The notes: generated by a model from the letters alone, not told the origin. 47,691 bases of DNA from an uncultured Coriobacteriia bacterium (GCA_964461725.1 CAYWVN010000001.1:1-47691); one strand, 5' to 3'. Shown: positions 4,801-37,477, counted from the stretch's first letter. Numbers and translations are program-made.

Positions 4801-6404
4801 AGGGGCGAGGCATCAACGCCTTCATCGGTCCCGCGCCCAGCAACTACTCGACTTCGAATTGCACGACCACCGGCTGCCATGGCTCGGACGACAACTGCTA
4901 CACGTGCCACGGCGAGACCGGCGGCAACCAGCGCGTGGTCTACCTGATGGGCCGCGGTTTTGCCGGCTCCGTGAACGGAGGTGTGGCCAAGACGTACCAC
5001 CACAACATGACGTCGCCGACGACGGCGTTTGCCGGGACTTCCGCGGATCCGCCGACGACTTCCGTCTCGACGAACACCTGCGAGGGTCGCTGTCACGCCA
5101 AGCATGCGGAGCATACCGGCACCAACGCCAAGTCACTCAGGGCCGGCAACGTGGAGCGCGAGCTGTGCCTCTACTGCCACGGCGTGGCCGGACGGGCCTA
5201 TCCGGCCCGGACGTTCACTTCCGTGTCGTACTCCGGGACGGCACATGACTACAGCACTCTGGGCTACACCGAGAACCGGTGGAACCCGAGCGTCGGCTAC
5301 AGCGCGAACTACCAGTACACCAAGAACTGCAACAAGTGCCATGCGCCGCACGGGACCAACATAAAGTATCTGGTCAACGAGGTAGTGGAGAACATGGGCA
5401 ATACCGGCTACGCCAACTACACTACGACGGCGGTCTCCGGCGAAGCCCAGCGGGATCGCGCCTGCTTCGCCTGCCACGGCCCAAAGGGCCCGGCCCCGCG
5501 TGACGTGAGCACCGCCTTCAATGAGTCCTCCAGGCACGACGTGTTCAGCACGGGGCAGGCCGGCCGCCATCAGGCGACCAGCACGGAGGCCACCGGTTCC
5601 GCCAACCGCCACGTGCTCTGCGAGGACTGCCATAATCCACACGGAGCCACAGCTTCGAACGTCCTCAGCGGGGTGTGGGGCGTGACGGTGAGCTACGGTC
5701 CACTCACCTACACGCGCATCGCGCAGGTCCAGACAGGCAAGGGGTGGCAGCTCTGCTTCAAGTGCCACAGCGGTTACGTGACTCTGCCGGCCGGAAGGCC
5801 GAACGTGGCAGTGCAGTTCACCCCCACAGTCGCTTTCCAGCACGGAGTCATGAGCGCCGGGGTCATGAACCCGAACGCCCTCATCGACGCCACGTTCGTG
5901 TCGCCGTGGACCAGGAACAGCCGAACCACATGCACGGACTGTCATGGTGACTCTGATTCGACCGCGCCCAAAGGCGTGCACGCCTCGGCCGCTGCGTCCA
6001 TCCTTCGGACGCCGACCAGCTCGGCGGCGCCCTCAGGCGCTTCCGACCAGTACGTCAACTGCTTCCTGTGCCACCGGTGGGAGGTCTACGACAACAATGT
6101 GGCGAACACTTCAGGCTCGCCCAGCGAGAACAACAGCCGGTTCGATCACAGTGGCTCCAACGGTGGCCATGACAAGCTGGTCGGAGACACGACCGTCTCA
6201 GGCATCTGGTGCCTGGCGTGCCACGGGGGCAAGGAAAAGGGCGGCATCCACGGGACCACGAACAACACGCTGCAGCATCTGAACGGGCAGTCCATCGCGT
6301 CCTATGCGAGCTTTACCGCCGGGACTATCACGTGTGACACGGTAGGTTCAGGCTCGGCGTGCACGCAGCACACCGGCGGCAAGTCGTATACCGCGAACTT
6401 CTAG
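1824..6404 (+). CDS. Giant membrane-anchored multihaem c-type cytochrome (19 CxxCH + 2 CxxxCH + 1 CxxxxCH, ~22 haem sites) with a cytoplasmic helical N-domain, one TM helix, a Ser/Gly-rich linker and an FN3-like domain
   Basis: Track ORF 1782..6404. Start is uncertain: GTG 1782, GTG 1824 or TTG 1830 (AGGAG at 1817-1821 is 8 nt before TTG 1830). TM helix YPQLAASFTMVSFLVASSWALASAL (~nt 2112-2192). S/G-rich linker at ~2292-2480. FN3-like segment LAVYAGDLENDLSWAAP...YYYKVRSVSKWG. Haem motifs run from nt ~3300 onward, many as CxxCHxxHG (CSACHSPH, CENCHYHHG, CNKCHAPHG, CEDCHNPHG). Variant sites: CTSICH, CTTTGCH, CEGRCH. Confidence 0.9.
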   Translation: MGLNARDLRQALDDSLELVLHQGLRTEQAAKRFPELESDLLPLLRTMAAARQAPAMRMPDPSKNRVWESVEDKITATAPPAGRFRVRAGRFLRHFNYPQLAASFTMVSFLVASSWALASALTPAPVSSPIQPDTRGGSVAAGAAGGVTAPGQLPTESYASGTGGGISVNPSSGTAGSSGSLSTGAGSTVASANTGDEDSSGGSGGDSGSSGSSGGGSSSTKKHKPKPPQGNHGTGDEGDGPGLPVSTPTSLAVYAGDLENDLSWAAPADASGRLKGYDVYRSDTEDGTYQKVNDAPVASSGYEDPISEDELGLYYYKVRSVSKWGQESGLTEAEPNLYVKISHRFAAAGSDEVIAANGKLSFLVPTASLTQDTTVTIDERDTAPIVEDARQASPPYDFGPDGLSFSDSAPAHLSMGYYFGVSDAELDLLLSTTVNLYYFDEASGSAVQVPDGDVAVDGASKTVNAAVRHFTTYWSSAKVNPHGNSSSGSTDWCTSICHGLHGGGYSATKWNAYDVCVQCHGNTNSYNPPAGAGLTTTAYNIEAGFIDCADQTYSDSTMSRHPAPESLMVCSACHSPHRKITDLTDNLYYRYRDPITPGNYASAYTYSYTASPLGNAFCWGCHGTQANVWSVAVGQIASISYYTQSLGDHRTGYESLAAHDVSLPASGAAPNAWVPPTSALGDRQGVNQSTNIRCENCHYHHGTSQARALTGYRLTSSYQGGREENLCYQCHTQTWKAGMKNIRGEFSKAYSHTVGSQTYYHNAYSESLTGVIAGQRHVECVDCHNTHRARMGTHTRGTNAVTGALVGAMGVVPNFGSTTGTAGSYAITQSATREYQICLRCHSSFDASAPKEISIDFNINNPSYHPVTSVGRNSTMAAGTLTAPWTASSTMYCSDCHTSDSTSISGPHGSTNAYMLARAYSTASRTSSTGFLCYICHQYNTYYAGTNTQSYFKKSGNDNLHYTHVNAAKAPQMNCWRCHDSHGSGFKQRLIAEGRGINAFIGPAPSNYSTSNCTTTGCHGSDDNCYTCHGETGGNQRVVYLMGRGFAGSVNGGVAKTYHHNMTSPTTAFAGTSADPPTTSVSTNTCEGRCHAKHAEHTGTNAKSLRAGNVERELCLYCHGVAGRAYPARTFTSVSYSGTAHDYSTLGYTENRWNPSVGYSANYQYTKNCNKCHAPHGTNIKYLVNEVVENMGNTGYANYTTTAVSGEAQRDRACFACHGPKGPAPRDVSTAFNESSRHDVFSTGQAGRHQATSTEATGSANRHVLCEDCHNPHGATASNVLSGVWGVTVSYGPLTYTRIAQVQTGKGWQLCFKCHSGYVTLPAGRPNVAVQFTPTVAFQHGVMSAGVMNPNALIDATFVSPWTRNSRTTCTDCHGDSDSTAPKGVHASAAASILRTPTSSAAPSGASDQYVNCFLCHRWEVYDNNVANTSGSPSENNSRFDHSGSNGGHDKLVGDTTVSGIWCLACHGGKEKGGIHGTTNNTLQHLNGQSIASYASFTAGTITCDTVGSGSACTQHTGGKSYTANF

Positions 6405-6427
6405 CCAGGAGAGGACGCACGGCCATT

Positions 6428-7825
6428 TTGGACACTCTCTTTGAACTACTGCGTTCGCGGAAGCTTGCCATAGGGCTCTTCATTGTGATCTCGGGGTTGG
6501 CCGTGGTGGGTACCATTGTGCCCCAGGCCCACCTGACACCGCCCGCGAGCTACCAAGCATTCTTGCAGAAGAACCCCACCCTGGCTCCCCTGGCCCAGAG
6601 GTTGGGTCTCACTGCCCTATACTACTCGTGGTGGTTCTACGCTCTTCTCCTATTGCTGCTGGCCAACACTGCGGCCTGCACCATCAGTCGCCTGGGTCCC
6701 CTGTGGCGCTTGCTGGCCGAGCCACCGTCGCTCAAGGACGCGCAGGCGATTGCGGCGATGCCCGGACACAGGAGCATCATGTGGCCGGACGTCCGGCCAT
6801 CGGACGGGGCCAAGCGGATCGGCGCGGTCTTCAGACGCGCCGGCTACGGCGTGAGACTGCACGAGGGCGAGTCAGGGACGCGGGCTGTCGCCTGGAAAGG
6901 ACGCGCCGGCCCGCTTGGCTCAATCGTCTTCCACTTGAGCTTCATCCCCATCGTGCTGGGTATTCTTTCCATGACGCTTTTTGGTCTTAGGGGAGTGGTT
7001 CTTGTCGACCAAGGAGAGCCGTGGAAGGAGGGCCACGGTGCGTATCTTTCTTTGAAGGAAGGCTATCTCTTTCGCGACCGCCATCCTGGGTTCCAGATCA
7101 CCTTGAACGGCGTCCGGCCCAGATACCGAAGGCGGGACCTTGTGGACCTGGCTGCCGACGTCACGGTGAACGGGGGGCTTGGGGAAAGGAAGCGGACAAT
7201 CGGTGTCAATCGCCCGCTGTCCCAGGACGGGTTTCTCCTTGTGTTGGACTCGTACGGGTTTGCCCCGCTGGTCCGGATTGCCGAGCGCGGTAGGGCGCGC
7301 TCCTACGCCTATATGAACCTCGGCTCGCGCGGTATCGAGGGCTCCGCCTTTGGGGACAGGTTCTCGATTGCAGGCAACCTGCAGGCGGACCTCCGCTTCT
7401 ACCCGGACGCCGTCTACGAGCGGGGCAAGGTGAGGGTTCTCTCACAGATCGCCCGCAGGCCTCTCGTCGAGCTGTTGCTTCGCCGGAACGGAAAGATCGT
7501 CTTCGACGGCCCGGTCGCGCTGGGAGGGACGGTGAAGCAGGGCGGCATGGCAGTGACGTTCTCCAAATGGCACCACTACGTAATCCTCAAGTTGATCAGA
7601 GACCCCGGCTGGTTCGTGCTGGTCGGGGGCTTCGTTCTGGCCGTTGCCGGACTAGTACTGCGCGCCGGCTTTGCATACCGCAGGTTCTGGATTGCGGTAG
7701 AAGCCCGCGGCAAGAGCCGACAGCTCCTCATGTCAGGAAGGAGCGACCGGTACGGCGCGTTCCTCGAACAGGAGATGGGGTCCTTGCTGTCAAGACTTCA
7801 GGAAGTCGGGGAGAAGGAGGCATAG
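6428..7825 (+). CDS. resB: Cytochrome c biogenesis protein ResB/CcsB (System II)
   Basis: N-terminus LFELLRSRKLAIGLFIVISGLAVVGTIVPQ is typical of ResB. TM helices flank a large extracytoplasmic loop. The likely start is TTG 6428, after AGGAGAGG (6406-6413); the track start 6359 would overlap the cytochrome gene. Confidence 0.8.
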   Translation: MDTLFELLRSRKLAIGLFIVISGLAVVGTIVPQAHLTPPASYQAFLQKNPTLAPLAQRLGLTALYYSWWFYALLLLLLANTAACTISRLGPLWRLLAEPPSLKDAQAIAAMPGHRSIMWPDVRPSDGAKRIGAVFRRAGYGVRLHEGESGTRAVAWKGRAGPLGSIVFHLSFIPIVLGILSMTLFGLRGVVLVDQGEPWKEGHGAYLSLKEGYLFRDRHPGFQITLNGVRPRYRRRDLVDLAADVTVNGGLGERKRTIGVNRPLSQDGFLLVLDSYGFAPLVRIAERGRARSYAYMNLGSRGIEGSAFGDRFSIAGNLQADLRFYPDAVYERGKVRVLSQIARRPLVELLLRRNGKIVFDGPVALGGTVKQGGMAVTFSKWHHYVILKLIRDPGWFVLVGGFVLAVAGLVLRAGFAYRRFWIAVEARGKSRQLLMSGRSDRYGAFLEQEMGSLLSRLQEVGEKEA

Positions 7826-8650
7826 GTGCTGTTCTATGAGACCATCTTCTTTTGGGTTGCGGTGGCCGGCTATGTCCTGGCCTTCGTCTATGGGCTTTTC
7901 TTGGTCGTCGCCCAGAAGGAATCCTCCCGGCTGTATGTTGCCCTGGCGGTGTCGGGTCTGGCTTGTCAGGCGGTGGCTATCGTGGTCAGGATTGACTATC
8001 TGTCGGCCCCACCGGTGCGCAATGTCTACGAGCTGAACATGCTGGGCGCCTGGCTGGTCGTGGCGATGTGGCTTGTTGTTCAGTGGAAATATCCGGAACT
8101 CAGGTCACCCGGGCTCGTCGTTCTAGCGGTGGCGTTCCTGATGATGGGCTTCGGCCTACTGTCACGGCCGGAGCTCAAACCCCTCACTCCGGCATACAAG
8201 AACCTATGGCTCTACGTGCACGTGTTCTTCGCCTGGTTTGCGTACGCGGCGTTCACAAGCGCATCGGCTGCCGCGATCTGGTTTCTATTGAGAGACCGCC
8301 CGCGGGCGCGTGCCGGGGACGAGCAGGCGGACCGGGCGCTGCTGGAACGTCTCGACTGGCTCGGCTATCGCCTGATTCTCTTTGGCTTCGCCATGAACGC
8401 AGTGATGCTTGTCTCTGGTGCGATCTGGGCTCGGGAGCTGTGGGGTAGCTACTGGAGCTGGGACGCGATAGAGACCTGGTCTCTGGTCGTCTGGCTGGCC
8501 TACGGTCTCTATCTCCACCTGAGAGCCAACTACGGCTGGAGGGGACGTCGGGCGGCCTGGTTTGCGGCTCTGGCGCTGCTACTAGTCAGCTTCAGCTTCT
8601 GGGGCGTAAACTACCTGACGTCTTCGGTCCATTCCTTCTACATGGCCTAG
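7826..8650 (+). CDS. ccsA: Cytochrome c biogenesis protein CcsA (System II haem lyase subunit)
   Basis: Trp-rich haem-handling motif WGSYWSWDAIETWSLVVWLAY in a polytopic protein. GTG 7826 directly follows the resB stop and is preceded by GGAGAAGGAGG. Confidence 0.9.
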   Translation: MLFYETIFFWVAVAGYVLAFVYGLFLVVAQKESSRLYVALAVSGLACQAVAIVVRIDYLSAPPVRNVYELNMLGAWLVVAMWLVVQWKYPELRSPGLVVLAVAFLMMGFGLLSRPELKPLTPAYKNLWLYVHVFFAWFAYAAFTSASAAAIWFLLRDRPRARAGDEQADRALLERLDWLGYRLILFGFAMNAVMLVSGAIWARELWGSYWSWDAIETWSLVVWLAYGLYLHLRANYGWRGRRAAWFAALALLLVSFSFWGVNYLTSSVHSFYMA

Positions 8651-8664
8651 CAGACACTCGATTC

Positions 8665-9333
8665 TTGGCGACTATGGCAAAACGTGCAGGGTCTAATCAG
8701 CGCGAGGGAGACCGGGGCTCCGGGGCAGGTGTCTGGAACGGAGCAGCTGGACCGAGCCGCGCGACCAAGCGCCCGGAGTCAGCCGAGCAGAAGGCGCCAT
8801 CCGAGCGGCCAAGGACGATGACCAAGGCACGTTGGGCGACCGTGCTTCTTGCCGCAGTCGCTCTTCTTCTGCTGGTTGTTACCGTGGCCTCGCGAAGAGG
8901 CCCCGCGGAGAAGATCGATTCCAGGGCGCTGGCCAAGGTACCACGGGAGTATCTGCTGCCCGGTGAACCGGTTGCCCGGGCTGAGGTCCTCGCGGGAGAA
9001 CGGCGGATGCCGATAATCAAGTGGCTTGTCGCCGTCAAACAGTACACCAACCTGCCCAGTCTCGCGGTCTGGAGGCGCTTCGACCGGGTATTGCGCTCGG
9101 GTGGCTTCGAGCACAATCTCACAGGAGAAGAGAAGCGGGACGACTACTTCTCCATGGACATGCTCAAGCCGGCCGGCCGCCTGCACATAGAGGTCTACCT
9201 CTATCCCACCCCGCAAGGTCCGAAGAAGAGCAAGTCCATCATCGTGTTGAGTCAGATCACCCACGATGCCTTCTCACAGGCGTGGTCACATCGCAATCAG
9301 ACACAGGCCGGCTCGCCTCAGCCTCCTGACTAG
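8665..9333 (+). CDS. Hypothetical single-pass membrane protein (charged N-tail, TM, ~140-aa extracytoplasmic domain)
   Basis: ORF with TM helix WATVLLAAVALLLLVVTVA. No motif recognised. The start is ambiguous (TTG 8665, ATG 8674 or ATG 8818). Confidence 0.45.
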   Translation: MATMAKRAGSNQREGDRGSGAGVWNGAAGPSRATKRPESAEQKAPSERPRTMTKARWATVLLAAVALLLLVVTVASRRGPAEKIDSRALAKVPREYLLPGEPVARAEVLAGERRMPIIKWLVAVKQYTNLPSLAVWRRFDRVLRSGGFEHNLTGEEKRDDYFSMDMLKPAGRLHIEVYLYPTPQGPKKSKSIIVLSQITHDAFSQAWSHRNQTQAGSPQPPD

Positions 9334-9541
9334 GACGCCACGTCTTCGACCTCGGCTTCTAGCCTCGCTGCCCTCAAGTGAGCGTGGAAGCGGGTCGATA
9401 GAGCTATCGTACGCATCCGTCGCGCGCGTCGATACTCCTTTGTGGCCGACCTGTCGCGCAGGCGGGACCCAGCGTGAAGATATGGTGAAGGCAGTGCGGT
9501 TCCCGGCCCGACTACGTTATATTGAGTGAGGCCAAAACGCC

Positions 9542-9558
9542 CCGGTATTGGATACCGG
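9542..9558. promoter_or_regulatory. 17-bp perfect palindrome CCGGTAT-tgg-ATACCGG, 25 nt upstream of the radical-SAM start
   Basis: Arms at 9542-9548 and 9552-9558 are exact reverse complements. It sits between a 250-nt intergenic region and the RBS GGAGGAG (9572-9578). Confidence 0.3.
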
Positions 9559-9582
9559 AACGGCAGCAACCGGAGGAGTAGG

Positions 9583-11064
9583 GTGAAGAGGGTCTTACTG
9601 TGTACACCGCCATATCACTGCGGCGTCCTGGAGTCCTCCGGGGTCTGGATGCCGCTGGGTCTGGCCTACATCGCCGGATCGCTGGAGGCGGCCGGCCACG
9701 AACCCGCCATCTATGACGCGATGTCCTTGTTCGACGAGTGGGACGATATTCGGAAGCGCCTGCGTGCCGATTGCCCCGACGTCGTCGGCGTGGGTGCCTA
9801 CACCGCGACCCTGCACGACGCCGTGCGCCTTCTTGCGGTGGCCAAGGAGGAGCTCCCTGGGGTGGTCACGGTGCTGGGCGGCATCCATCCGACCTTCTGC
9901 TGGCAGGAGGTCCTTGAGGGCGATGGCGACGCGGTCGACTACGTGATCCGCGGCGAAGGCGAGGCGACTTTCCCCGAACTTCTCGAGGCGTTGGAGAGCG
10001 GCGCGGACCCGGCGCAGGTTCCCGGCGTGGCGTGCCGTCGCGACGGCGAGGTCGTCGCCGGCCCGGTGCGGTCTTTCGTCGAGGACCTGGACACGCTGCC
10101 GGTGGCTTGGCACCTTCTGGACTGGCCGATGTATGAGTTCTACGCCGCCACCGACAACTCTCGCATGGCGCTGGTGTGTTCGTCTCGCGGCTGCACGCAG
10201 GGCTGCAGTTTCTGCTCGCAGCAGCTTTTCTGGGAGCGCACCTGGCGCGGTCGGAATCCGGAGAAGTTCGTCGCCGAAATCGAGATGCTGGCCCGCGACC
10301 ACGGCGTCGGCGTCTTCATGATCACCGACGAGATCCCCACGCTCGACCGGGAGCGGTGGGAGAAGATACTCGACCTCCTTATCGAGCGGGACCTGGGCGT
10401 GGAGATCTTGATGGAGACCCGCGTCGACGACGTTCTGCGCGACGAGGACATCATGCACAAGTACCACGAGGCGGGTGTCCTGCACATCTACGTGGGGGTC
10501 GAGGCGACCACTCAAGATACGCTGGATAGATTCAAGAAGAATATCAAGGTGGAGGGGTCGAAGAAGGCGGTCGATCTCATCAACCAGGCCGATATCATCT
10601 CAGAGACCTCGCTGGTGCTCGGGCTGCCGGAGGACACACCGGCCTCCATCAATGCCACGCTGAAGCTGGCGCAGCACTACAACCCGGACATGGCCTTCTT
10701 CCTGGCTCTTGCGCCCTGGCCCTACGCGGACATCTATCCAGAGCTGGAGCCCTTCGTTGAGGAGAAGGACTACAGCAAGTACAATCTGGTGGAGCCGATC
10801 ATCAAGCCGGTCGCGATGTCGCGCGAGGAATTGAACCGTGAGCTCCTGCGCTGCTTCAGGGAGTTCTACATGGGCAAGATGAAGCAACTGCCGGCGATGA
10901 CTCCGTTCAAACGCGAATACATGATGAAGGTAATGAACATCATCATGAACAACTCCTACATCTCGGCTCAGATGAAGGAGATGGGGCCGATACCGGAGAT
11001 GGTCCGGCAGGTGGCCCGGGCACTCGGCCCCGCTCAGGGCAAGCGGGCGGCCGGCCAGGGGTAG
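9583..11064 (+). CDS. B12-binding-domain radical SAM protein (class B)
   Basis: Radical SAM cluster motif CSSRGCTQGCSFCSQ (CxxxCxxC). N-terminal Rossmann-like B12-binding region (VLLCTPPY...VVGVGAYT...VLGGIHPT). GTG 9583 is preceded by GGAGGAG; the track start 9526 has no RBS. Confidence 0.8.
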   Translation: MKRVLLCTPPYHCGVLESSGVWMPLGLAYIAGSLEAAGHEPAIYDAMSLFDEWDDIRKRLRADCPDVVGVGAYTATLHDAVRLLAVAKEELPGVVTVLGGIHPTFCWQEVLEGDGDAVDYVIRGEGEATFPELLEALESGADPAQVPGVACRRDGEVVAGPVRSFVEDLDTLPVAWHLLDWPMYEFYAATDNSRMALVCSSRGCTQGCSFCSQQLFWERTWRGRNPEKFVAEIEMLARDHGVGVFMITDEIPTLDRERWEKILDLLIERDLGVEILMETRVDDVLRDEDIMHKYHEAGVLHIYVGVEATTQDTLDRFKKNIKVEGSKKAVDLINQADIISETSLVLGLPEDTPASINATLKLAQHYNPDMAFFLALAPWPYADIYPELEPFVEEKDYSKYNLVEPIIKPVAMSREELNRELLRCFREFYMGKMKQLPAMTPFKREYMMKVMNIIMNNSYISAQMKEMGPIPEMVRQVARALGPAQGKRAAGQG

Positions 11065-11136
11065 CCGGTCGTAGCCATCCGGCTGCCGGGCGGGTGCAGG
11101 TCGGCGGTCGCGTGAGCTGAGAAAGGGTAATTCCGC

Positions 11137-11820
11137 TTGATACACTTCCTTCCTGCAAGGGTGAACCGCTGGCTGTTCGTCGGCCGGATCAGCCCCTGGA
11201 CGGCGCTGGGGATCATCGCGCTTACTCTCGCGACGACCGTGGCCATCATCATCGCCATCTACCTGAGTTTGGCGCAGGCGCAACCCGGCTTCACGCCCCA
11301 GGAGCTCTCCTACATCGCCGGGCAGGTGAGGGCCGAGCAGCGTCCGGCCGACGCCTCCGCCCATGTCGACTATGCGTGGGCTCTCTACAGGAAGGGCGCT
11401 CTAGGCACGGCCGAAGTGGAGTACAAGAAGGCTTTGAGGCTGGACCCGGACAACCTCGCCGCGATCTACGGCCTGGGGCTGATCGCCGAGCGACGGGGGC
11501 GGTCGAGCGCCGCGGTAAGCTTGTACCGGAAGGCACTTCGGCTCTCGCCGTTCTTCTCCGAGGGCCACTTCCACCTAGGCCGCATCTACCTTGCGCAGAA
11601 GAAGTACGATGCGGCTATCCGCGAACTCAAGAAGGTCATTCGCTACGAGCCGGGCTCCGCCGACAGCCATCTTCTCCTGGGCAAGGCGTACCAAGGGAAG
11701 GGATTCCCCGGTCTTGCGGCGGCCGAGTACCGCGAGGCTTTGCGCTACGTCCCGGATCTTGCCGAAGCGAAGAAGGGCTTGCTTAGCTTGGGCAAGAAGT
11801 GGTGGGAGCGGCGTGACTGA
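11137..11820 (+). CDS. Membrane-anchored TPR-repeat protein
   Basis: TM helix WTALGIIALTLATTVAIIIAIYL, then TPR-like repeats (AWALYRKGALGTAEVEYKKALRLDPDN; GHFHLGRIYLAQKKYDAAIRELKKVIRYEPGS). Its stop overlaps the next start (TGATG). Confidence 0.75.
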   Translation: MIHFLPARVNRWLFVGRISPWTALGIIALTLATTVAIIIAIYLSLAQAQPGFTPQELSYIAGQVRAEQRPADASAHVDYAWALYRKGALGTAEVEYKKALRLDPDNLAAIYGLGLIAERRGRSSAAVSLYRKALRLSPFFSEGHFHLGRIYLAQKKYDAAIRELKKVIRYEPGSADSHLLLGKAYQGKGFPGLAAAEYREALRYVPDLAEAKKGLLSLGKKWWERRD

Positions 11821-12806
11821 TGAAGAAGACGAACCTTCTGGCGACGATCTGGGTCATCCTTCTGGCCGGCGGCCTGGCCAGCCTGTATCTGATCTACGCC
11901 TCCCTAGCGGGTGGTCCGATGTTCCTCCCTCTGGGCCGCCGGGTGACGCCGACGTTCTCCTTCCATGTGTACGGGCGCTCCGCCTATGGGGCCGGCGCGT
12001 TGTCCCGGCCTCTTGGAGCGGCGGTCTCTGAGGACCGCTTGTTCGTTGCGGACACCGGACGGGAGCGCATCCAGGTGTTCGACAAGTCGGGCGATTTCCT
12101 GATGTCGTTTGCCGCAAAGGCGCCGGAGCAGGCACCCGGGAGGGCCGGTGGCCAACCATCCTCCGTGAGCTTCTTTCCGGGTCGCCCCTTGTCCATCTCG
12201 GTCAGTCCCGACGGGCGGGTCTTCGTCGCCGTCTCGGGGAACCCTCGTCTGCTGGTGTTTGACGCGCAGGGCAGGTTCGAATCTCTCTTTCCCCCTTTGA
12301 AGCAGCCGGGGCTGCGGAGTCCGCTGGCTACGGTGGCCACGCGCGACAAGGTCTACGTGACCGACGCCGCTAACCAGTGCATGATCGTCTTCTCGCGCGA
12401 AGGCATCGAGCTCCTGAAGTTCGGTTCGTCCGGCGAGAAGCCGGGCCGGTTCTACTTCGCGACAGGTCTCGCGGTGGACTCGGTCGGGTCGATGTACGTG
12501 GCCGACAGCAACAACGGGCGGGTGCAGGCGTTCGATTCCGTGGGGCAGGCGCTGTTCGAGACGCCGCGCGAATGGCTCACGCTGCCGCGGGGCGTCGCCC
12601 TGGACCGCCTCGGGCGCATCCACGTCGTCGACGCGTTCAACCATCGGGTAGCGGTGCTCTCGCGCGACGGCACACCGCTCTTCAACTATGGGCAGCGTGG
12701 GACCGGGGAAGGTGAACTCAACTTCCCGGCTGGTATTGCCATAGACAATAGCCAGATTTATATTGCTGACAAGGAAAACGACCGCATCTCAGTGTGGGAA
12801 TACTAG
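11820..12806 (+). CDS. NHL-repeat beta-propeller protein with an N-terminal signal anchor
   Basis: Repeated NHL-type blades: LFVADTGRERIQVFDKSGDFL, VYVTDAANQCMIVFSREG, MYVADSNNGRVQAFDSVG, IHVVDAFNHRVAVLSRDG, IYIADKENDRISVWE. N-terminal hydrophobic segment LLATIWVILLAGGLASLYLIYA. Confidence 0.85.
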   Translation: MKKTNLLATIWVILLAGGLASLYLIYASLAGGPMFLPLGRRVTPTFSFHVYGRSAYGAGALSRPLGAAVSEDRLFVADTGRERIQVFDKSGDFLMSFAAKAPEQAPGRAGGQPSSVSFFPGRPLSISVSPDGRVFVAVSGNPRLLVFDAQGRFESLFPPLKQPGLRSPLATVATRDKVYVTDAANQCMIVFSREGIELLKFGSSGEKPGRFYFATGLAVDSVGSMYVADSNNGRVQAFDSVGQALFETPREWLTLPRGVALDRLGRIHVVDAFNHRVAVLSRDGTPLFNYGQRGTGEGELNFPAGIAIDNSQIYIADKENDRISVWEY

Positions 12807-12817
12807 AAGAGAGCCCA

Positions 12818-13258
12818 TTGCATCGTCGCGCCCTTCGTCCGGTCTGGCTCGTGTTCCTGCTGACGGCAACGGTCGTCCTCTACGCGTGCATTCCCGGCAG
12901 GGTAGACCGGCCGCGGGTCGTTGTGTCCCGCTATCTCGGCTACCTGGTTGAGCGCAACTACGAGCGGGCCTATCCGTTGCTCGCTTCCTCGTTCCGAAAG
13001 AAGTACCAGGTCAAGGACGTCATGAGCGTGAGCGAGCGACTGCGGGGCGAGGGGGTTTTCTTCTCTCGGCCGGAGGTGAGGAGTGAACGCATCGATGGAG
13101 ACCGGGCGTTCGTCCGGTACTCCATCGCGGTGCGCGGGGGCGCCGGGCACAGCGGGCGCACCTACTCCGGGGAGTCCGAGCTCCGGAGAGAAGCGGACGT
13201 GTGGCGCATCGTGAAGATCGTCGCCCTGCCGCGCACGTGGCTGGAATCGACCGAGTAA
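12818..13258 (+). CDS. Small putative lipoprotein, function unknown
   Basis: Signal-like HRRALRPVWLVFLLTATVVLYAC with a lipobox-like LYAC. Track start GTG 12794 overlaps the NHL gene; TTG 12818 gives a more typical signal peptide. Confidence 0.5.
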   Translation: MHRRALRPVWLVFLLTATVVLYACIPGRVDRPRVVVSRYLGYLVERNYERAYPLLASSFRKKYQVKDVMSVSERLRGEGVFFSRPEVRSERIDGDRAFVRYSIAVRGGAGHSGRTYSGESELRREADVWRIVKIVALPRTWLESTE

Positions 13259-13270
13259 GACAGGACCGCC

Positions 13271-15352
13271 ATGGCCAAGAAGAAGCGGAAGACCGCACCG
13301 CCGCCGAAGAGCCTGCGATTCGAGGATGAGGTCATCGGCTGGCTCATCCTGCTGATCGTGCTGCTGGTTCCCACGCTGGTCTATCCTCCCATGCTCGACA
13401 TGTACGATCTTGCCAAAGCCACCACCGTGCGGATCCTGGTCATCTCGCTCTTGTTCTTCTGGTGGCTGCGGGTCTCGTTCGGGGAACGGGCGACGCTCCG
13501 GCGCGGTGTCGGCGACGCGCCTCTCGCGGCCTTCCTGACGATTCTGGGCGCGACCGTGGTGACCTCAGTGGTACCGATCATCAGCCTGGTAGGCGCGTTC
13601 AAACGCCATGAAGGCTGGACCACGTTCTTGGCGTACGGCGTGATCTACTTCACCACGGTGAACTTCGTGAGACGCTACTCCGACCTCAAGCGAATCCTCT
13701 TCGTCACTTTCGTCGCAAGCAACCTGGCCGCCATCTATGCCGTTCTGCAGCGGACCGGCATCCCGTATTCGTCCAGTTGGGGCCGCGGGTGGGACTGGCT
13801 GGCCTTCAGCGCGGATAAGTACGAGCTGGTGCGGGCGTTCTCCTCGCTGGGCAACCCAGTGTTCTTGGCCAGCTACATGGCCATGATCCTGCCGTTGGCC
13901 CTGGCCGCCTACTTCTCGGCTCGCGGTCTGGCGGACCAGGCATTCGCGGCCGTCACGGGGTTGCTGGCGCTGGCTGCGCTCATCTTCACCTATTCGCGCG
14001 GTGGTTGGTGGGGCGCGCTGGCCGGAGTGATCGTGCTGCTCGTGATGGCTGCTCCGGCCATCGCCCGTCGCTGGAAAGCTCTGGCCGTGGCGGTGGCGTT
14101 GATCGTGCTGCTCGGATGGCTTATCGACCTGGCACCGATCCAGCGGCAGGGAGTCGGCTCGTCCGTGATCGAGCGGGCCGTCTCATCCGTGAAGCTTGGC
14201 GAAGGCAGCACGGCGACGCGCGCGGAGATGTGGAAATCTACTTTCAACGTGATTAAGGCGCGTCCGCTGACGGGCTTCGGCCTCGAGGTGTTCAAGGAGG
14301 TCTACCCGCGCTACCGGACGGAGCGCCTGGTGCGGTTGGAGGGGGAGATGTCGCTGCCCGACCGGCCGCACAACGAGGCCCTCTATCTGGCAGCGACCGG
14401 GGGCATCTTCGCGCTGCTCGCGTACTTGTGGTTCCTGTTCGCCGTGTGGGGACGGGCGTTTCAATGGCTGCGCCGTTCCGAGTCTCAGGAGCAGAAGCTC
14501 GTAGTCGGCGGATTGATCGCGGCCACCGTGGCTGTCGAGGCCGCCGCCCAGGCGTCGTTCTCCATGATCACCGTGACCCCGGTCTTCTTCGTGATGATGG
14601 GGTTGCTGGCCGTGACGGCGCCTCCACGGGGCGGTCGGCAGGAGGTCTCGTTCCGACTGCCGGGGCTGGATTCGGAGGGGGCCCGCTATGCCGCGCTGGC
14701 CGGCGTGACCGTGCTGTTGCTCGCGCTAGGGGTGTTCTCCTGGCGGCTCGGTGTAGCCGACGTGTACTACAATGCTGGTGTCAATGCCGAGTCGATGGGG
14801 CAGCTTCCGACGGCACTGGTCGGGTACAGCGAGGCGGTGAGCCTGAACCCGTGGCAGAACATGTACCGGCTGAACCTGGGGGCGAGCCTTCAACGACAGG
14901 CGCAAGCATCGCGTGACCGGGGCATCGCCGACCAGGCGCTGCAGGTCTATCGTGACGGAGTGGCCATGGATCCCCTTGACGAAGACACGTGGGCCAATAT
15001 GGGCGACGCCTATCGTAACTACGCCGCGCAGTGGAACGACCCGGCCAAGCTGGACAACGCGATTGCGGCATACCGCCAGGCGATCCGGATAGATCCGTGG
15101 TTCGCCGCGCCCAACGAGGGCGCGGGGGCCATATGGATCCAGCGTAACCGACCCGCTGAAGCCATCCCCTATCTGCGGGCCGCGGTCAGGGTGGACCCGA
15201 AGAGAACTGAGAGTTTCTACCTTCTCGGTCTGTCCTACGAGGTCGGAAACCGGGTCGAGGAGGCCAGGGCGGCATTCCGGAAGGTACTCGAGTTGGACCC
15301 GAAGCACTCCGGGGCACGGAAAGAGCTGGCCAAGCTGACCCGGTCGAAGTAG
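13271..15352 (+). CDS. Polytopic O-antigen-ligase/Wzy_C-like membrane protein fused to C-terminal TPR repeats
   Basis: At least 10 hydrophobic helices. Wzy_C-like core (IFTYSRGGWWGALAGVIVLL, GFGLEVFKEVYPRY, PHNEALYLAATGGIFALLAYLWF). C-terminal TPR repeats (YSEAVSLNPWQ, AYRQAIRIDPWF, AFRKVLELDPKH). Confidence 0.75.
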   Translation: MAKKKRKTAPPPKSLRFEDEVIGWLILLIVLLVPTLVYPPMLDMYDLAKATTVRILVISLLFFWWLRVSFGERATLRRGVGDAPLAAFLTILGATVVTSVVPIISLVGAFKRHEGWTTFLAYGVIYFTTVNFVRRYSDLKRILFVTFVASNLAAIYAVLQRTGIPYSSSWGRGWDWLAFSADKYELVRAFSSLGNPVFLASYMAMILPLALAAYFSARGLADQAFAAVTGLLALAALIFTYSRGGWWGALAGVIVLLVMAAPAIARRWKALAVAVALIVLLGWLIDLAPIQRQGVGSSVIERAVSSVKLGEGSTATRAEMWKSTFNVIKARPLTGFGLEVFKEVYPRYRTERLVRLEGEMSLPDRPHNEALYLAATGGIFALLAYLWFLFAVWGRAFQWLRRSESQEQKLVVGGLIAATVAVEAAAQASFSMITVTPVFFVMMGLLAVTAPPRGGRQEVSFRLPGLDSEGARYAALAGVTVLLLALGVFSWRLGVADVYYNAGVNAESMGQLPTALVGYSEAVSLNPWQNMYRLNLGASLQRQAQASRDRGIADQALQVYRDGVAMDPLDEDTWANMGDAYRNYAAQWNDPAKLDNAIAAYRQAIRIDPWFAAPNEGAGAIWIQRNRPAEAIPYLRAAVRVDPKRTESFYLLGLSYEVGNRVEEARAAFRKVLELDPKHSGARKELAKLTRSK

Positions 15353-15592: not shown

Positions 15593-15608
15593 TGTGAACT
15601 GGTTCACA
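15593..15608. promoter_or_regulatory. Perfect CRP/GlxR-type operator TGTGA-N6-TCACA
   Basis: TGTGA (15593-15597), actggt, TCACA (15604-15608). The arms extend to TGTGAAC/GTTCACA. It lies 87 nt upstream of ATG 15695 of the second multihaem cytochrome. Confidence 0.55.
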
Positions 15609-15694
15609 TGCGGACACCGAGGGCGGCAGAAAGCCACCGTGGGTGTCGCGGTGTGCTGCGCCCAGGGGTGCGCACGAATGCAGGATCAGCACGC

Positions 15695-18451
15695 ATGATA
15701 GTGGTGAAGAGAGGGGTTCTGGGGCTCTCGGCGTCGATTGCCGTGATGCTGGCGTTGGCCGGCCTTTGGGCACCGGTTGCGTCGGCCGCCAACGCTCACT
15801 CCAGCTACTCGCGGGGGACGGAGCGATGCCGCTCCTGTCACTTCAACCACACCGCCGCGGAATCGGACAGCCTGCTCAAGACGTCCACTGTGTCAGGCAG
15901 CTGCCGGATGTGCCATGACGGTACTGGGAGCGATTACGACGTCGAGGCGGGGACCGCGTTCGGTAAGCCGGCTCCTGCCGGGAACGCGGCCATGCGCTCG
16001 GGTCGGACCACATCGGCCCATGACCTGGACGTGACGACCAAGGCGCCGGGTGGCTCCGGTAACTGGATCGAGATGGACTGCGCGGCGTGCCATGCCCCGC
16101 ACGGTTCGGAGAACTTCCGGAACCTGCGCGAGAATATCCTGGGACGGGCGGTCTCGGTGTCGGCGGATGTTCGCCCGGCGACCTCCACGTCCGCCGAGGT
16201 TGTCACATACAAGGGTGGCAACGTTGAGTTCTGCACCGCGTGTCATACGACCTACTACCAGGACACCTCTCGGGGGCACTACTTCCTCAGGTCGGCCGGC
16301 AAGGCGGAGGCCGGATCACGGTTGATTTGTGAGGACTGCCACAACTCCCATGGCTCCCGCGGCACCGGCAGCATCTTGTCCGAGGAGCTTCTGACGGCGG
16401 TCAGGGGAGAGCGGCTGTTGGCCAGCGGCGGGTACCAGCGCTTCGTCTCTCTGGAAAGCGATGCTTGGGACAGCCGGGTCGGGGTGACAATCTATGTTAA
16501 CGGTCATCGTGCCGACGGGAACTACAAGGTCAACTACGACGAGGCCTACGTGCAGTTCGACGCCCCGCTGGATGACAATGCCAAGGTGACCGCCGACTAT
16601 CGGCGTACCGGGGTCTCGAAAGGCTCAAGCGGGCGGAGGCGAAGGGACGCGTGCCTGGCGTGTCACCACGCCAAGAACGCTCCGGCTCTGTATGGTCGCC
16701 AGCCGGTGCAGATGCTGACCGGCATGGAGGGTCACGATATCGGACTTCTTCGCCCCTGTCAGGACTGCCACGGCGACGTGCATGACGTCGGGCCCGGCGA
16801 CAGCGGGTGCTACCCCTGCCACTCCGAGTTCGACCCGGTGAGCGGCAAGAGCGGTCCGGCCTCGGACCTGCTGTCGCTCATGGGCGAGTCGAAGAACGGG
16901 CTGGCACCCAAGGTGAAGTACCACCACACGATAACGGACGGGCGTAGTGCGGGCACCAACTCCTGCGAGGTCATGTGTCATGCGCCTCACCCGCACTACA
17001 GGGGCGCGGCCTCCGCGGGCGCTTCCGCGCACACCTGGCTCACCAGCCCGGCTCTGGGTACCGTAGAGGTCAGCATGGCCGCCCGGACGGACTACGACTA
17101 CGTTGGCGCGGGCGGCGGTGGGGTGTGCCTCTCCTGCCACTCCGCCGACTCCAAGGTAGTCCCCAGCGACCTCCAGGTCGACGCGCGCGTCTATCAAGAC
17201 AGTCTCCACAGCTACAAGACGGCCGTCTACGACGCCGACTTCGGTTCGAGCGCGGCCGGCGACGGTACGTTCTACGAGGCGGGTTGCGCGAAGTGCCACT
17301 CTCCGCATGGCTCGAATCTTCCAGGCATGATGCGGCAGGCCATCAAGGACACGGGTTTGTCCGAGGAGGGCCGGGTCCATGAGGTGAAGACCGATTCGAG
17401 GGGACGGCTTAGCGATTCCGTCTGCTATGCGTGTCATGCGGAGGCGAGCTCGGGCCTTCCGACCAGCAGCTATAGCCTGCTGGCCTATCCGTTCGGCCCC
17501 GCGACCGACAATGGCTCGGCGTTCTATCCCGGGCGGGGGTCGCTCGTCGACTATGATCGCGCCCGCTGGCCCGGATTCGACGTGTATGCCGAGTCGGCCC
17601 ACGGGAACAAGACCGACGCCCAGATGCGTTGGCCGGGTACCGACTCCGGGCAAGGGTCCCCGTACGCCAAGGACGCCGATCTGTCCTACACGCGTGAGGC
17701 ACCGGTGGGCGATGAAGGCAAGTGCAAGAACTGTCATGCGACACACGGCTCCAGCGAGAACGACATGCTGCTGGCGGCCTACAGCGGAACGGCCGGCGAA
17801 ACGCAAGCGATCAACAACGTGTGCTTCGTCTGCCACGACGCGGACGGGCCCGCGCAGAACATCTACCAGTACTACGACAGCGATGCTGCCGGGCCGTCGG
17901 CTGGGCACGCACTCAAGGTAGGCGGTGCGGGCAAGGCGGCCGGCTACAAACTGCTCTGCAGCGATTGTCACGCACCGCACGGCTCCAAGAACGGAAACGG
18001 CGCCATGCTGTCCGACAGCCTGAACACCAGCAGCTACCAGCTGTCCGCGCCGGACGACCCGGCCAGCCACGATGCGACCTGCATCGCTTGTCACGGCAGC
18101 CCGGGAGGGAACTACGGCGCGCAAGTTGCCGGCCGCGTCATGTATGGGCACGCTATCGTCACCACTCCGGCCGATCACGCCGAGAAGACCGGCCGGTGCC
18201 TCCATTGCCACGGACCGGCCCACGCGCCGAGTTCGGGGACGGCTTCCGGGGACGAGTGCTACAGCTGCCATCCCGACGGTACGCCAGAGTCAGGTGGCGT
18301 CACGGGCGGCACAGATGGCGGCACTGGTGGCGTCACGGGCGGCTCCGAGGGCGATACCGGCGCGGCGACCGGCGGCTCCGCAGGGACTATCGGCGGCGCG
18401 TCATGGGGCGTTCTTCAAGGGGCAACATCGGCCGTCAAGAACAGGCGTTAG
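15695..18451 (+). CDS. Secreted multihaem c-type cytochrome (17 CxxCH + 1 CxxxCH, ~18 haem sites) with a Gly-rich repeat tail
   Basis: Signal peptide MIVVKRGVLGLSASIAVMLALAGLWAPVASA/AN. Motifs CRSCH, CRMCH, CAACHAPHG, CTACH, CEDCHNSHG, CLACH, CQDCH, CYPCH, CEVMCH, CLSCH, CAKCHSPHG, CYACH, CKNCHATHG, CFVCH, CSDCHAPHG, CIACH, CLHCH, CYSCH. The track start 15608 lies upstream of the signal peptide. Confidence 0.9.
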   Translation: MIVVKRGVLGLSASIAVMLALAGLWAPVASAANAHSSYSRGTERCRSCHFNHTAAESDSLLKTSTVSGSCRMCHDGTGSDYDVEAGTAFGKPAPAGNAAMRSGRTTSAHDLDVTTKAPGGSGNWIEMDCAACHAPHGSENFRNLRENILGRAVSVSADVRPATSTSAEVVTYKGGNVEFCTACHTTYYQDTSRGHYFLRSAGKAEAGSRLICEDCHNSHGSRGTGSILSEELLTAVRGERLLASGGYQRFVSLESDAWDSRVGVTIYVNGHRADGNYKVNYDEAYVQFDAPLDDNAKVTADYRRTGVSKGSSGRRRRDACLACHHAKNAPALYGRQPVQMLTGMEGHDIGLLRPCQDCHGDVHDVGPGDSGCYPCHSEFDPVSGKSGPASDLLSLMGESKNGLAPKVKYHHTITDGRSAGTNSCEVMCHAPHPHYRGAASAGASAHTWLTSPALGTVEVSMAARTDYDYVGAGGGGVCLSCHSADSKVVPSDLQVDARVYQDSLHSYKTAVYDADFGSSAAGDGTFYEAGCAKCHSPHGSNLPGMMRQAIKDTGLSEEGRVHEVKTDSRGRLSDSVCYACHAEASSGLPTSSYSLLAYPFGPATDNGSAFYPGRGSLVDYDRARWPGFDVYAESAHGNKTDAQMRWPGTDSGQGSPYAKDADLSYTREAPVGDEGKCKNCHATHGSSENDMLLAAYSGTAGETQAINNVCFVCHDADGPAQNIYQYYDSDAAGPSAGHALKVGGAGKAAGYKLLCSDCHAPHGSKNGNGAMLSDSLNTSSYQLSAPDDPASHDATCIACHGSPGGNYGAQVAGRVMYGHAIVTTPADHAEKTGRCLHCHGPAHAPSSGTASGDECYSCHPDGTPESGGVTGGTDGGTGGVTGGSEGDTGAATGGSAGTIGGASWGVLQGATSAVKNRR
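18293..18391 (+). repeat. Three imperfect 33-bp (11-aa) Gly-rich tandem repeats at the C-terminus of the second cytochrome
   Basis: GGTGGCGTCACGGGCGGC occurs at 18293-18310 and again at 18326-18343. The protein reads GGVTGGTDGGT / GGVTGGSEGDT / GAATGGSAGTI. Confidence 0.7.
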
Positions 18452-18457: not shown

Positions 18458-18841
18458 TTGAGTACGGGTGCGGCGCTCCTCGTCTACACCAACAACTACC
18501 TGCATGACTTCTCAGCGGCCGTGTTCCTCGCCAACGCTGTCCTTACCTACTGGGTCGGCCGCGCGTTGACCGAACGGGACGACGTCGGTACCCGGGAGGC
18601 CTTTGTCCGCATCTACCGCAAGTCTCTTGTCATCACCGGCATCAGCGGCGGCGGCATCGTCGTGGGCGGGGTCATCCGCGCTCTGGCCTACGTGCGCTAC
18701 GAATGGGCGCCGGCGGCGGGTTCGGGTCAGATCACCGTACTGCTGGTGAAGCACGTCGTCTTCGCTCTGACCGTCGTGGCGGCGCTGTATCTCCAGTTGG
18801 GGCCTGTCCGGGCGATGCTGCGGGAGCCAAGAGGGAGATGA
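18458..18841 (+). CDS. Small ~3-TM membrane protein of unknown function, immediately after the second cytochrome
   Basis: TTG start 6 nt after the cytochrome stop. Hydrophobic helices AALLVYTNNYLHDFSAAVFLANAVLTYWV, SLVITGISGGGIVVGGVIRALAYV and ITVLLVKHVVFALTVVAALYLQL. Two conserved-looking His residues. The stop overlaps the next start (ATGA). Confidence 0.55.
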   Translation: MSTGAALLVYTNNYLHDFSAAVFLANAVLTYWVGRALTERDDVGTREAFVRIYRKSLVITGISGGGIVVGGVIRALAYVRYEWAPAAGSGQITVLLVKHVVFALTVVAALYLQLGPVRAMLREPRGR

Positions 18842-19584
18842 CGAACGGTTCAGGGTTGGACATCATCTCTCTCTGGCGGTCGGTCGTGTCCGCCGTCGAC
18901 GAGGAAGCCTACGGGCCCGATCCCCAGCTCGCGTCTCTTCGAGACGATGTCCCGCGATGCGCCCGGGCATTGCTCGTCTTCCTGGCAGCCGACGCGAGCG
19001 GCAGCAAGGTCGACGACGGCACTCTGATCAGGACGGCAACCGCAATCGAGCTGCTGGGCATCGGCATCTCTCGCCACTACGAGCCTCCGGCCGACACCGG
19101 CGATCCTCAGCTGGATCTCATCGCGGGCGATTTCTGGTGTGCGCGCAGCATGCAGGTGGCCGCGTCGCTGGGACGGCCTTGGCTAAACGGCCTGCTTGCC
19201 GGGGTCGTGGCGGAGACGGCCGTGGCCGAGAGTGAGCTCTCCGACGGGGAGCTGTCCGCCGGGCAGGCCGCCCGGGCGCTGGGCCGCCGGGCGGAGCTGT
19301 ACGCGACGGCCTGCGAGGTGGCGGTGGCAATTGGAGCGCCGGAGTACCGCCGGGAGGGACCCGTGGAGCGCTGGCGCGAGGCGGGGCGTCGCCTTGGCGT
19401 GTTGAAGCTGGCGGCGTCGGATTCATGGGCGACGGTCCGAGAAGCGCTTGATCCCGATCACCTGTCCGTATGTCGCGCGGAACTGACCTCGCTAATCGAC
19501 GAGTACGCTCATGGCCCCGGGGCAGAGTCCCTGCGGGCCTACTGCGAGAGCACGGGAGACTGGACACCCGGGGGCGCCAGATGA
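18838..19584 (+). CDS. Polyprenyl-synthase-like protein lacking both DDxxD motifs (putative non-catalytic partner subunit)
   Basis: Reads like a trans-prenyltransferase fold (TATAIELLGIGISRHYE where LxHxxSLxHDDxxD is expected; LIAGDFW), but the catalytic Asp-rich motifs are absent. ATG 18838 overlaps the previous stop, and its own stop overlaps the ATG of the next gene. Confidence 0.5.
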   Translation: MTNGSGLDIISLWRSVVSAVDEEAYGPDPQLASLRDDVPRCARALLVFLAADASGSKVDDGTLIRTATAIELLGIGISRHYEPPADTGDPQLDLIAGDFWCARSMQVAASLGRPWLNGLLAGVVAETAVAESELSDGELSAGQAARALGRRAELYATACEVAVAIGAPEYRREGPVERWREAGRRLGVLKLAASDSWATVREALDPDHLSVCRAELTSLIDEYAHGPGAESLRAYCESTGDWTPGGAR

Positions 19585-20558: not shown

Positions 20559-20628
20559 CGAGCGGGGATGTGCTACATTACCCGAACCCCCAACGGGCGC
20601 GAATGCGGATGGTAGGAGAGGGAGACAG

Positions 20629-26322: not shown

Positions 26323-26352
26323 GCCGCGGCGGCGGTCCGAGGTGAGGCCGTG

Positions 26353-27501: not shown

Positions 27502-27504
27502 CCT

Positions 27505-37468: not shown

Positions 37469-37477
37469 TTCCGGTGA

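Follow-up and report, generated by a model that had tools for sequence, protein, structure and literature searches.

Do five closely packed genes that lie among multihaem cytochrome genes form one module with one target, or do they belong to more than one unit? The question is raised by positions 9583-15352 of a 47,691-nucleotide stretch of DNA (the window; GCA_964461725.1 CAYWVN010000001.1:1-47691) from an uncultured Coriobacteriia bacterium. Genes for a cobalamin-dependent (class B) radical S-adenosylmethionine (SAM) enzyme, a tetratricopeptide repeat (TPR) protein, an NHL propeller, a small putative lipoprotein and a polytopic Wzy_C protein with a TPR tail follow one another there. A first-pass annotation had read them as a translationally coupled module, sandwiched between two cytochrome genes, that covalently modifies an envelope component or the cytochromes themselves. 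We find that the block splits into two units, and that the radical SAM gene is linked, in both bacteria and archaea and in perfect agreement of orientation, to genes of the System II pathway of cytochrome c synthesis. With moderate confidence, we read the two units as cytochrome accessories within one co-directional island for extracellular electron transfer.

Every substantial open reading frame (ORF) from 1782 to 21972 is on the + strand of the window, which has a GC content of about 64%:

1782-6404, + strand: multihaem cytochrome, 1540 aa, 19 CXXCH motifs
6359-7825, + strand: ResB (CcsB), System II cytochrome c synthetase subunit (Pfam ResB, 2.4e-58)
7826-8650, + strand: CcsA (ResC), System II haem-handling subunit (Pfam Cytochrom_C_asm, 1.1e-39)
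8665-9333, + strand: ORF of 222 aa between CcsA and the radical SAM gene, one transmembrane (TM) helix, no family above threshold
9583-11064, + strand: cobalamin-dependent (class B) radical SAM enzyme (Pfam B12-binding and Radical_SAM)
11137-11820, + strand: membrane-anchored TPR protein (Pfam), one N-terminal TM helix
11820-12806, + strand: membrane-anchored NHL beta-propeller (Pfam NHL, 1.2e-31), six repeats
12794 or 12818 to 13258, + strand: putative small lipoprotein, 154 aa, NTF2-like fold in a structural model
13271-15352, + strand: polytopic membrane protein with Wzy_C and TPR domains (Pfam Wzy_C, 1.3e-21)
15608-18451, + strand: second multihaem cytochrome, 17 CXXCH motifs, likely start ATG 15696
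18458-18841, + strand: small membrane protein, 127 aa (match to a neighbour-cluster profile, E 6e-10)
18703-21972, + strand: unassigned ORF, then polyprenyl synthase, then amidohydrolase genes

The packing described by the first-pass annotation is real, and its junctions proved exact, with all five ORFs on the + strand. The TPR stop and the NHL start overlap in TGATG (11818-11822). The NHL gene ends in TAG (12804-12806), which gives a 13-nt overlap with a lipoprotein gene that starts at GTG 12794, or an 11-nt gap to the alternative in-frame start TTG 12818. The lipoprotein stop (TAA 13256-13258) and the Wzy-TPR start (ATG 13271) are 12 nt apart. The radical SAM gene is joined less tightly, with 72 nt between it and the TPR gene (11065-11136) and 249 nt upstream of it (9334-9582). 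Pfam, motif and hydropathy evidence also bore out the domain assignments of all five products. The block is flanked by cytochrome genes as described, but on the upstream side ResB, CcsA and the 222-aa ORF intervene. This ORF has no homologue in 87 related loci; ORFs of 164-215 aa that adjoin the radical SAM gene elsewhere were considered as its counterparts and rejected, as they are not homologous to it. In the 249-nt gap, an Rfam scan found neither a cobalamin riboswitch nor any other RNA, and its only two matches in the window, tRNA-Sec and a molybdenum cofactor (Moco) riboswitch, lie outside that gap. Scans for terminators (background level) and promoters (a single weak promoter-like site, ahead of the downstream cytochrome gene) were uninformative at 64% GC.

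Co-directional packing with overlaps in the window favors a single translationally coupled module with one target, be it an envelope component or the cytochromes, and all five families recur in two Actinomycetota loci (L013 and L024). In those loci, however, the radical SAM gene is at the far end and adjoins CcsA, not the Wzy, TPR or NHL genes, and the 72-nt gap in the window also speaks against one module. The closest syntenic relative of the window (L088) matches it from CcsA to the amidohydrolase gene at 40-66% identity; in it the TPR gene starts 23 nt after CcsA, and the two are not separated by a radical SAM gene. The four-gene set of a second contig (P0145) likewise comes without a radical SAM gene. 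Among 80 radical SAM loci from other genomes, NHL genes occur in 9, TPR genes in 10 and Wzy genes in 2. Because the four-gene set exists without the radical SAM gene and its members are rare around that gene, we conclude that in evolutionary terms the five genes are two units, which in this genome happen to be adjacent. A single module is, in our judgment, decidedly unlikely. The arrangements of the envelope genes are as follows (identity to the window protein in parentheses):

L088: CcsA, TPR (40%), NHL (43%), lipoprotein (48%), Wzy-TPR (46%), cytochrome, orthologue of the downstream one (51%), small membrane protein (44%) and, further on, polyprenyl synthase and amidohydrolase (66%)
L106: NHL (86%), lipoprotein (61%), Wzy (72%)
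P0145 contig: lipoprotein (29%), Wzy-TPR, TPR, NHL, cytochrome, without a radical SAM gene
L089-L091: Wzy-TPR, TPR and NHL genes interspersed among five cytochrome genes, about 40% GC
L094, 7428-20979: at least seven Wzy_C-type paralogues in tandem, next to genes for three multihaem cytochromes, on a contig of about 40% GC
L107: cytochrome, Wzy, cytochrome, Wzy-TPR
L013 and L024 (Actinomycetota): Wzy, TPR, NHL, NHL, cytochrome, ResB, CcsA, radical SAM

If the radical SAM gene is not bound to the four genes downstream, what does it accompany? Its product has 495 relatives in a scan that took one genome for each GTDB species. For the best 80 of these loci, counted at species level, all ORFs were translated and searched with the window proteins, and CXXCH motifs were counted. 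The hosts, by record title, are 22 archaea, 33 Geobacterales/Desulfuromonadales, 14 Nitrospirota, 6 Actinomycetota and a few others. Within 10 kb of the radical SAM gene, CcsA was found in 53 loci, ResB in 38 and a cytochrome with at least four CXXCH motifs in 47; at least one of the three was present in 65 of the 80, and in 50 of the 59 loci whose flanks reach at least 10 kb. ResB or CcsA lies within 3 kb in 37 loci, and 17 loci have a cytochrome with at least 20 CXXCH motifs. Orientation agrees as well. All 94 of the ResB and CcsA ORFs are on the radical SAM strand, as are 82 of the cytochrome ORFs, with 11 on the opposite one. An unbiased, all-versus-all clustering of neighboring ORFs ranked CcsA first (48 loci), followed by ResB (43), a membrane protein of about 120 aa and cytochrome families. 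The radical SAM gene thus lies near, and co-directional with, ResB and CcsA, as expected of a System II cluster member. The first-pass annotation overlooked this tie to the genes directly upstream, and its proposed link to multihaem cytochromes stands in the co-occurrence test that it had suggested. We regard the association as more than chance because it recurs in other genomes, and not on account of packing alone. Literature searches combining radical SAM, ResB/CcsA, multihaem and Methanoperedens found no description of a link between radical SAM enzymes and CcsBA.

In the archaeal (Methanoperedens) loci, the order is radical SAM, thioredoxin, ResB, CcsA and a giant cytochrome. ResB and the radical SAM gene are separated by the thioredoxin gene in 12 archaeal loci (L008, L010-L012, L018, L019, L021-L023, L025, L030 and L034; for example, L011 3709-4203). 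The archaeal radical SAM proteins are about 58% identical to the bacterial ones, and the System II genes alongside them are of bacterial type. These similarities suggest that the whole cassette of radical SAM and System II genes was transferred between domains of life. Some of the cytochromes beside the radical SAM gene are very large. One has 56 CXXCH motifs in 2,297 aa (L006 14484-21377), and another, in a Euryarchaeota metagenome-assembled genome, has 69 in more than 3,271 aa and runs off the locus (L029 11604-21416). A six-haem cytochrome that is conserved in archaea beside the Methanoperedens radical SAM gene was considered as a common substrate and rejected, as it has no counterpart in the Actinomycetota or the window.

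The other frequent partner of the radical SAM gene is the two-histidine membrane protein of about 120 aa. An alignment of this family shows invariant NxxxHD and KH motifs, and a hidden Markov model (HMM) detects a member in about 47 of 87 loci. In Geobacterales and Nitrospirota no other gene is as often the immediate neighbor of the radical SAM gene, which it adjoins in 19 of 33 and in 10 of 14 loci, respectively. The HMM, built from neighbor cluster 3, is what identifies the window ORF at 18458-18841; a homologue search with the window protein returned only itself and two relatives. Other copies are at L059 4700-5092, L010 14328-14681 and L007 7595-7981. Members from four lineages have CopD-like Pfam matches that are weak and sub-threshold. 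That the conserved partners of the radical SAM gene are ResB, CcsA and this small protein is a further reason not to count it with the four genes downstream.

The closest described system is in Geobacter. Four ResB/ResC pairs of Geobacter each lie beside multihaem cytochrome genes, and each pair was proposed to serve the cytochromes encoded nearby (Aklujkar 2009, PMC2700814). Cytochrome c biogenesis cluster #3 (GSU2891-GSU2885) contains ResB (GSU2891), ResC (GSU2890), a hypothetical protein (GSU2889), a radical SAM protein (GSU2888), a 27-haem cytochrome (GSU2887), a 7-haem cytochrome and an NHL protein (GSU2885), as well as an acyl-protein synthetase (GSU2893) (PMC2700814, Table S5). No role is given there for GSU2888, and literature searches found nothing that names this gene. 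The order of genes in cluster #3 is that of loci L031 and L060, and cluster #3 and these loci have in common ResB, ResC/CcsA, a hypothetical protein, the radical SAM protein, cytochromes with more than 20 and with seven haems, and NHL. On gene order only, we suggest that GSU2888 is the G. sulfurreducens counterpart of the window radical SAM gene, and GSU2889 is probably that of the small membrane protein. Unlike cluster #3, the window adds the TPR, NHL, lipoprotein and Wzy genes and has no LuxE-like gene nearby.

Several other genes recur in these radical SAM neighborhoods. A LuxE-like acyl-protein synthetase (Pfam LuxE, 3.2e-18), which corresponds to GSU2893, is found in 15 loci (L037, L044, L051, L054, L066, L071, L074, L078-L081, L083, L084, L086 and L087; for example, L051 995-2518), and none is found near the five-gene block in the window. 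An adenylate-forming enzyme beside a BchE-like one could activate a haem propionate. Divergent second or third cobalamin radical SAM paralogues, 21-26% identical to the main clade, directly follow CcsA in many Geobacterales and Nitrospirota loci (for example, L017 8379-9815, L071 6186-7541 and L037 4651-6045). In six loci, a PMT/ArnT-type membrane glycosyltransferase is encoded near ResB/CcsA and the radical SAM gene (for example, L007 2578-4565, with a GT2 enzyme, and L045 2289-3686). The PMT-type neighbors hint, as a separate line of evidence, at glycan transfer alongside the maturation of these cytochromes.

What might the radical SAM enzyme do? It has the class B architecture, with a B12-binding domain (PF02310, 2.7e-27) followed by a Radical_SAM domain (PF04055, 4.6e-21), both above gathering cutoffs. 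Its CX3CX2C motif (C204/C208/C211) is invariant in 22 aligned homologues. The protein has no TM helix and no signal sequence and is therefore cytoplasmic. Its closest relatives (56-63% identity), among the best matches, are in Candidatus Methanoperedens, ANME-2, Geobacteraceae/Geobacterales, Nitrospirota, Actinomycetota and a few other groups. The closest characterized family is BchE, with which it shares the N-terminal B12-binding domain, the radical SAM core and a C-terminal extension. It matches the BchE model (TIGR02026) over its full length with 416.8 bits and an E value of 1e-124, and the next NCBIfam family is far weaker (8.6e-48). A search of solved structures found only distant class B enzymes (TokK, 8e-18) and so gives no indication of the substrate.

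The protein is nevertheless not BchE. Its score is below the equivalog cutoff of 481.35 bits. Its identity to the products of three true bchE genes, from plasmid-borne photosynthesis clusters flanked by puhE/hemN or ppsR, is 37-39%, compared to 56-63% within its own clade. In a neighbor-joining tree, the window protein and its homologues form a separate clade that is sister to true BchE and outside the bchE genes of the photosynthesis clusters. Its hosts are non-phototrophs, and its neighbors are ResB, CcsA and cytochrome genes rather than bch or puh genes. It is thus a class B enzyme that falls outside BchE on all three tests of membership, and the low score and identity, the hosts and the neighbors together argue that its substrate is not that of BchE.

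Three kinds of substrate or role can be weighed against these observations. The first is a tetrapyrrole. BchE acts on a porphyrin side chain and CcsBA exports haem, and hosts with three different haem pathways share the enzyme at about 58% identity. Haem synthesis is siroheme-dependent in the archaea, protoporphyrin-dependent in Geobacter and coproporphyrin-dependent in Actinomycetota. For these reasons haem or a late porphyrin would be the most likely substrate, an assignment that we make tentatively and that draws on homology. The second is the apocytochrome itself, which the enzyme could modify in the cytoplasm before Sec export, by C-methylation for example, leaving haem unaltered. Methylases make up most of the class B radical SAM enzymes, and many act on peptides or proteins. 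The window protein also has weaker matches to C-methyltransferase families of peptides that are ribosomally made and altered post-translationally (RiPPs), and linkage to cytochrome genes would fit this role equally well. We consider it unlikely, given that the peptide methylase families match at about 1e-31 to 1e-39, compared to 1e-124 over the full length for BchE. In addition, the most constant neighbors are the haem-handling ResB and CcsA, and the nearby cytochromes fall into several unrelated clusters.

The third possibility is that the enzyme yields no modified product and is an anaerobic haem-supply enzyme that boosts the amount of haem b for haem-rich proteins. Its relation to a tetrapyrrole enzyme and the very high haem demand of its anaerobic hosts would agree with such a role. 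On the other hand, a supply enzyme would not be expected to be shared by hosts with three different haem pathways, and no haem-biosynthesis family is among the recurrent neighbors of the gene, so that we find this role very unlikely. The covalent modification proposed by the first-pass annotation is still a proposal, narrowed for the radical SAM enzyme, probably, to a BchE-like reaction directed at a tetrapyrrole.

The four genes that follow have a different history. All Wzy-TPR relatives of at least 28% identity, and all lipoprotein relatives on contigs long enough to show neighbors, are among cytochrome genes, and locus L096 also pairs Wzy-TPR, TPR or NHL genes with cytochromes. Close relatives are few. 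Besides itself, the Wzy-TPR protein has three at E <1e-90 among 5.8 billion cluster representatives, and the lipoprotein has 17 at E <=1e-3 among 1.84 billion representative proteins. Could the set be a general cluster for wall polysaccharide or a surface layer that merely lies near cytochrome genes? The homology to Wzy_C and WaaL would favor this, and cytochrome-free relatives of the Wzy_C protein do exist, although only distant ones, of 22-27% identity. The Wzy proteins of L013 and L024 are about 25% identical and yet lie among cytochrome genes. Against a general cluster, the closer relatives and the readable lipoprotein contexts, all among cytochrome genes, come from lineages of about 62% and about 40% GC. 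Furthermore, the scanned ORFs of the window yielded neither a glycosyltransferase nor a flippase nor a sugar-nucleotide gene. The general polysaccharide cluster away from cytochromes that would have spoken against the link was not observed, and we judge this explanation to be highly improbable.

The proteins of the set appear suited to work outside the membrane. Both the TPR and the NHL protein carry a single TM helix at the N-terminus, and the TPR domain of the former is predicted to be extracytoplasmic. The NHL protein has four significant Pfam NHL stretches and a match to DUF5128, a six-bladed propeller; blade repeats located by motif are at residues 62-92, 120-151, 165-195, 211-242, 253-284 and 300-328. 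The 154-aa lipoprotein candidate has a signal sequence and no Pfam family. Its lipobox, LYAC, is atypical in having Tyr at -2, and aligns with a canonical ISGC in the L088 homologue; distant members of the family have no Cys and look TM-anchored. An AlphaFold2 (AF2) model (predicted local distance difference test score, pLDDT, of 86) is an NTF2-like alpha+beta cone, and its PDB matches include the N-terminal domains of PBP3 and PBP2a as well as other NTF2-like proteins.

The last protein of the set is, by sequence, a bona fide relative of the Wzy_C/WaaL family in an atypical context and with an unusual tail. Its Wzy_C score is 77.4 bits (Pfam cutoff 31.7), and it combines about 12-13 hydrophobic segments with a TPR tail of about 200 aa at the C-terminus. 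In a fold search with the full AF2 model (pLDDT 81), TPR matches dominate (OGT, SPY), so the membrane domain was tested by sequence profile. The profile matched WaaL (7TPG, 5.5e-16) and aligned conserved Arg residues and the His of an (A/P)HN(D/E) motif, which lies in the large loop. R302, R317, R349, D364, R365, H367 and N368 are invariant in the four closest Wzy-TPR homologues. It is thus like WaaL and PglL in its Wzy_C domain, its polytopic membrane region and its alignable large-loop Arg and His, and unlike them in having an extra TM helix, the TPR tail and cytochrome genes as constant neighbors. According to hydropathy and the AF2 model, the TPR tail should lie outside the membrane owing to the extra helix that follows the WaaL-like core. 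PglL-type enzymes glycosylate proteins.

Two known systems offer comparisons. CcmI/CycH and NrfG of System I are membrane-anchored TPR proteins, and in L088 the TPR gene directly follows the cytochrome c synthetase genes, as theirs do. In contrast to those proteins, the window TPR protein matches the CcmH/CycH-type TPR family (PF23914) below threshold and is associated with System II, for which we know of no described TPR chaperone. Another small TPR protein, the third, is encoded a few kb downstream of the island (22925-23635 in the window, 15729-16526 in L088) and also has a sub-threshold CcmH/CycH-type match (30.4 bits). OscD of G. sulfurreducens is beta-propeller-like, as is the NHL protein here. 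The osc (omcS-companion) cluster to which it belongs comprises non-cytochrome genes conserved beside an extracellular cytochrome gene, and OscH is proposed to fold, OscEFG to secrete and OscD to shape the cytochrome (Shen et al. 2025, as summarized in PMC13194489). This account of osc mentions no radical SAM or Wzy-like member. We liken osc to the four-gene set as a functional analogue by description only; the set differs in having no peptidyl-prolyl isomerase or channel-like gene, and its host is probably a monoderm of a high-GC lineage, unlike the host of osc.

The two flanking cytochromes have low-complexity regions that such proteins could act on. In the upstream cytochrome, a linker at residues 150-240 is 62% Ser, Thr and Gly, and the downstream cytochrome has a Gly/Thr/Ser-rich C-terminal tail. 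Starting the latter at ATG 15696 would give it a signal peptide. At its N-terminus, the upstream cytochrome has a cytoplasmic region of about 110 residues, Arg-rich at the start and without a signal peptide, followed by a TM helix. This N-terminus (1782-2500) resembles a membrane-anchored, possibly anti-sigma-like region rather than a plain signal peptide.

Putting these observations together, we suspect that the island holds two accessory units. In the first, the radical SAM gene would function with the upstream ResB-CcsA pair and the small membrane protein at 18458-18841. The enzyme would modify haem or a porphyrin precursor in the cytoplasm before export, and the dedicated CcsBA would export the modified haem and attach it to the large cytochromes encoded nearby. 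The small membrane protein could be a haem-handling partner of the radical SAM enzyme, or a redox or electron-transfer partner. In the second unit, the TPR, NHL, lipoprotein and Wzy-TPR proteins, with soluble domains predicted to be outside the membrane, would act on the exported cytochrome. By analogy with CcmI and NrfG, the TPR protein might be an apocytochrome chaperone, and the NHL propeller might be a scaffold. The WaaL-like protein might ligate a lipid-linked glycan to the Ser/Thr/Gly-rich linkers of the cytochromes, or tie the cytochrome to the wall, with its TPR tail recognizing the protein substrate. The roles of chaperone, scaffold and ligase are possible, and we put less trust in them than in the tetrapyrrole substrate, because glycan genes were not found and the folds are unspecific.

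Gene content, homology and the recurrent linkage of each unit to cytochromes are observed; we infer the substrates and the chemistry from homology and gene neighborhood, and several points weigh against the interpretation as a whole. Fifteen of the 80 radical SAM loci have no ResB, CcsA or cytochrome gene within reach, and in one Methanoperedens locus (L015) the radical SAM gene is in a housekeeping context; the same genome carries a second copy that adjoins ResB-CcsA (L034). In the window itself, an unrelated ORF and the 249-nt gap separate the radical SAM gene from CcsA, and the small membrane protein gene is 7.4 kb away from it. Since class B enzymes are mostly methylases, similarity to BchE does not fix the substrate, and solved structures of cytochrome nanowires show ordinary haem c. 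For the second unit, the PF23914 match of the TPR protein reaches 28.8 bits, and that of the Wzy TPR tail 22.1 bits, against a cutoff of 42. NTF2 and NHL folds are functionally unspecific, and the missing glycan genes noted above count here as well.

Other features of the window lie downstream of, or at the end of, the cytochrome island. The unassigned ORF, trans-polyprenyl synthase and amidohydrolase genes keep their order beside Wzy-TPR and cytochrome genes in three lineages (window 18703-21972, L088 11896-14992 and L107 6957-9327), and this set may be related to menaquinone. The remaining features are:

25582-29004: TatC and a NiFe hydrogenase (small and large subunits), encoded downstream of the cytochrome island
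39406-39498: tRNA-Sec, directly after selA and selB (36050-39403)
46310-46458: Moco/tungsten riboswitch

The building and placing of cytochromes with 20 to 70 haems is a largely unexplained process. A BchE-related cobalamin radical SAM enzyme accompanies ResB/CcsA pairs in Geobacterales, Nitrospirota, Actinomycetota and methane-oxidizing archaea, which offers a genetically testable hypothesis, namely that cytochrome maturation includes an extra cytoplasmic step and possibly a modified haem, with GSU2888 and GSU2889 as the candidate genes in G. sulfurreducens if gene order is a good guide. The four-gene set suggests a route by which wall-bearing, probably monoderm, bacteria could chaperone, anchor or glycosylate surface cytochromes. 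We speculate further that the radical SAM enzyme, the small two-histidine membrane protein and a dedicated CcsBA might be an ancient cassette, shared horizontally between Bacteria and Archaea, that makes an altered haem (methylated, side-chain-oxidized or ring-modified, for example) and attaches it specifically in giant extracellular cytochromes. We consider this rather unlikely, but if it is true, the cytochromes of extracellular electron transfer would carry a cofactor other than plain haem c.

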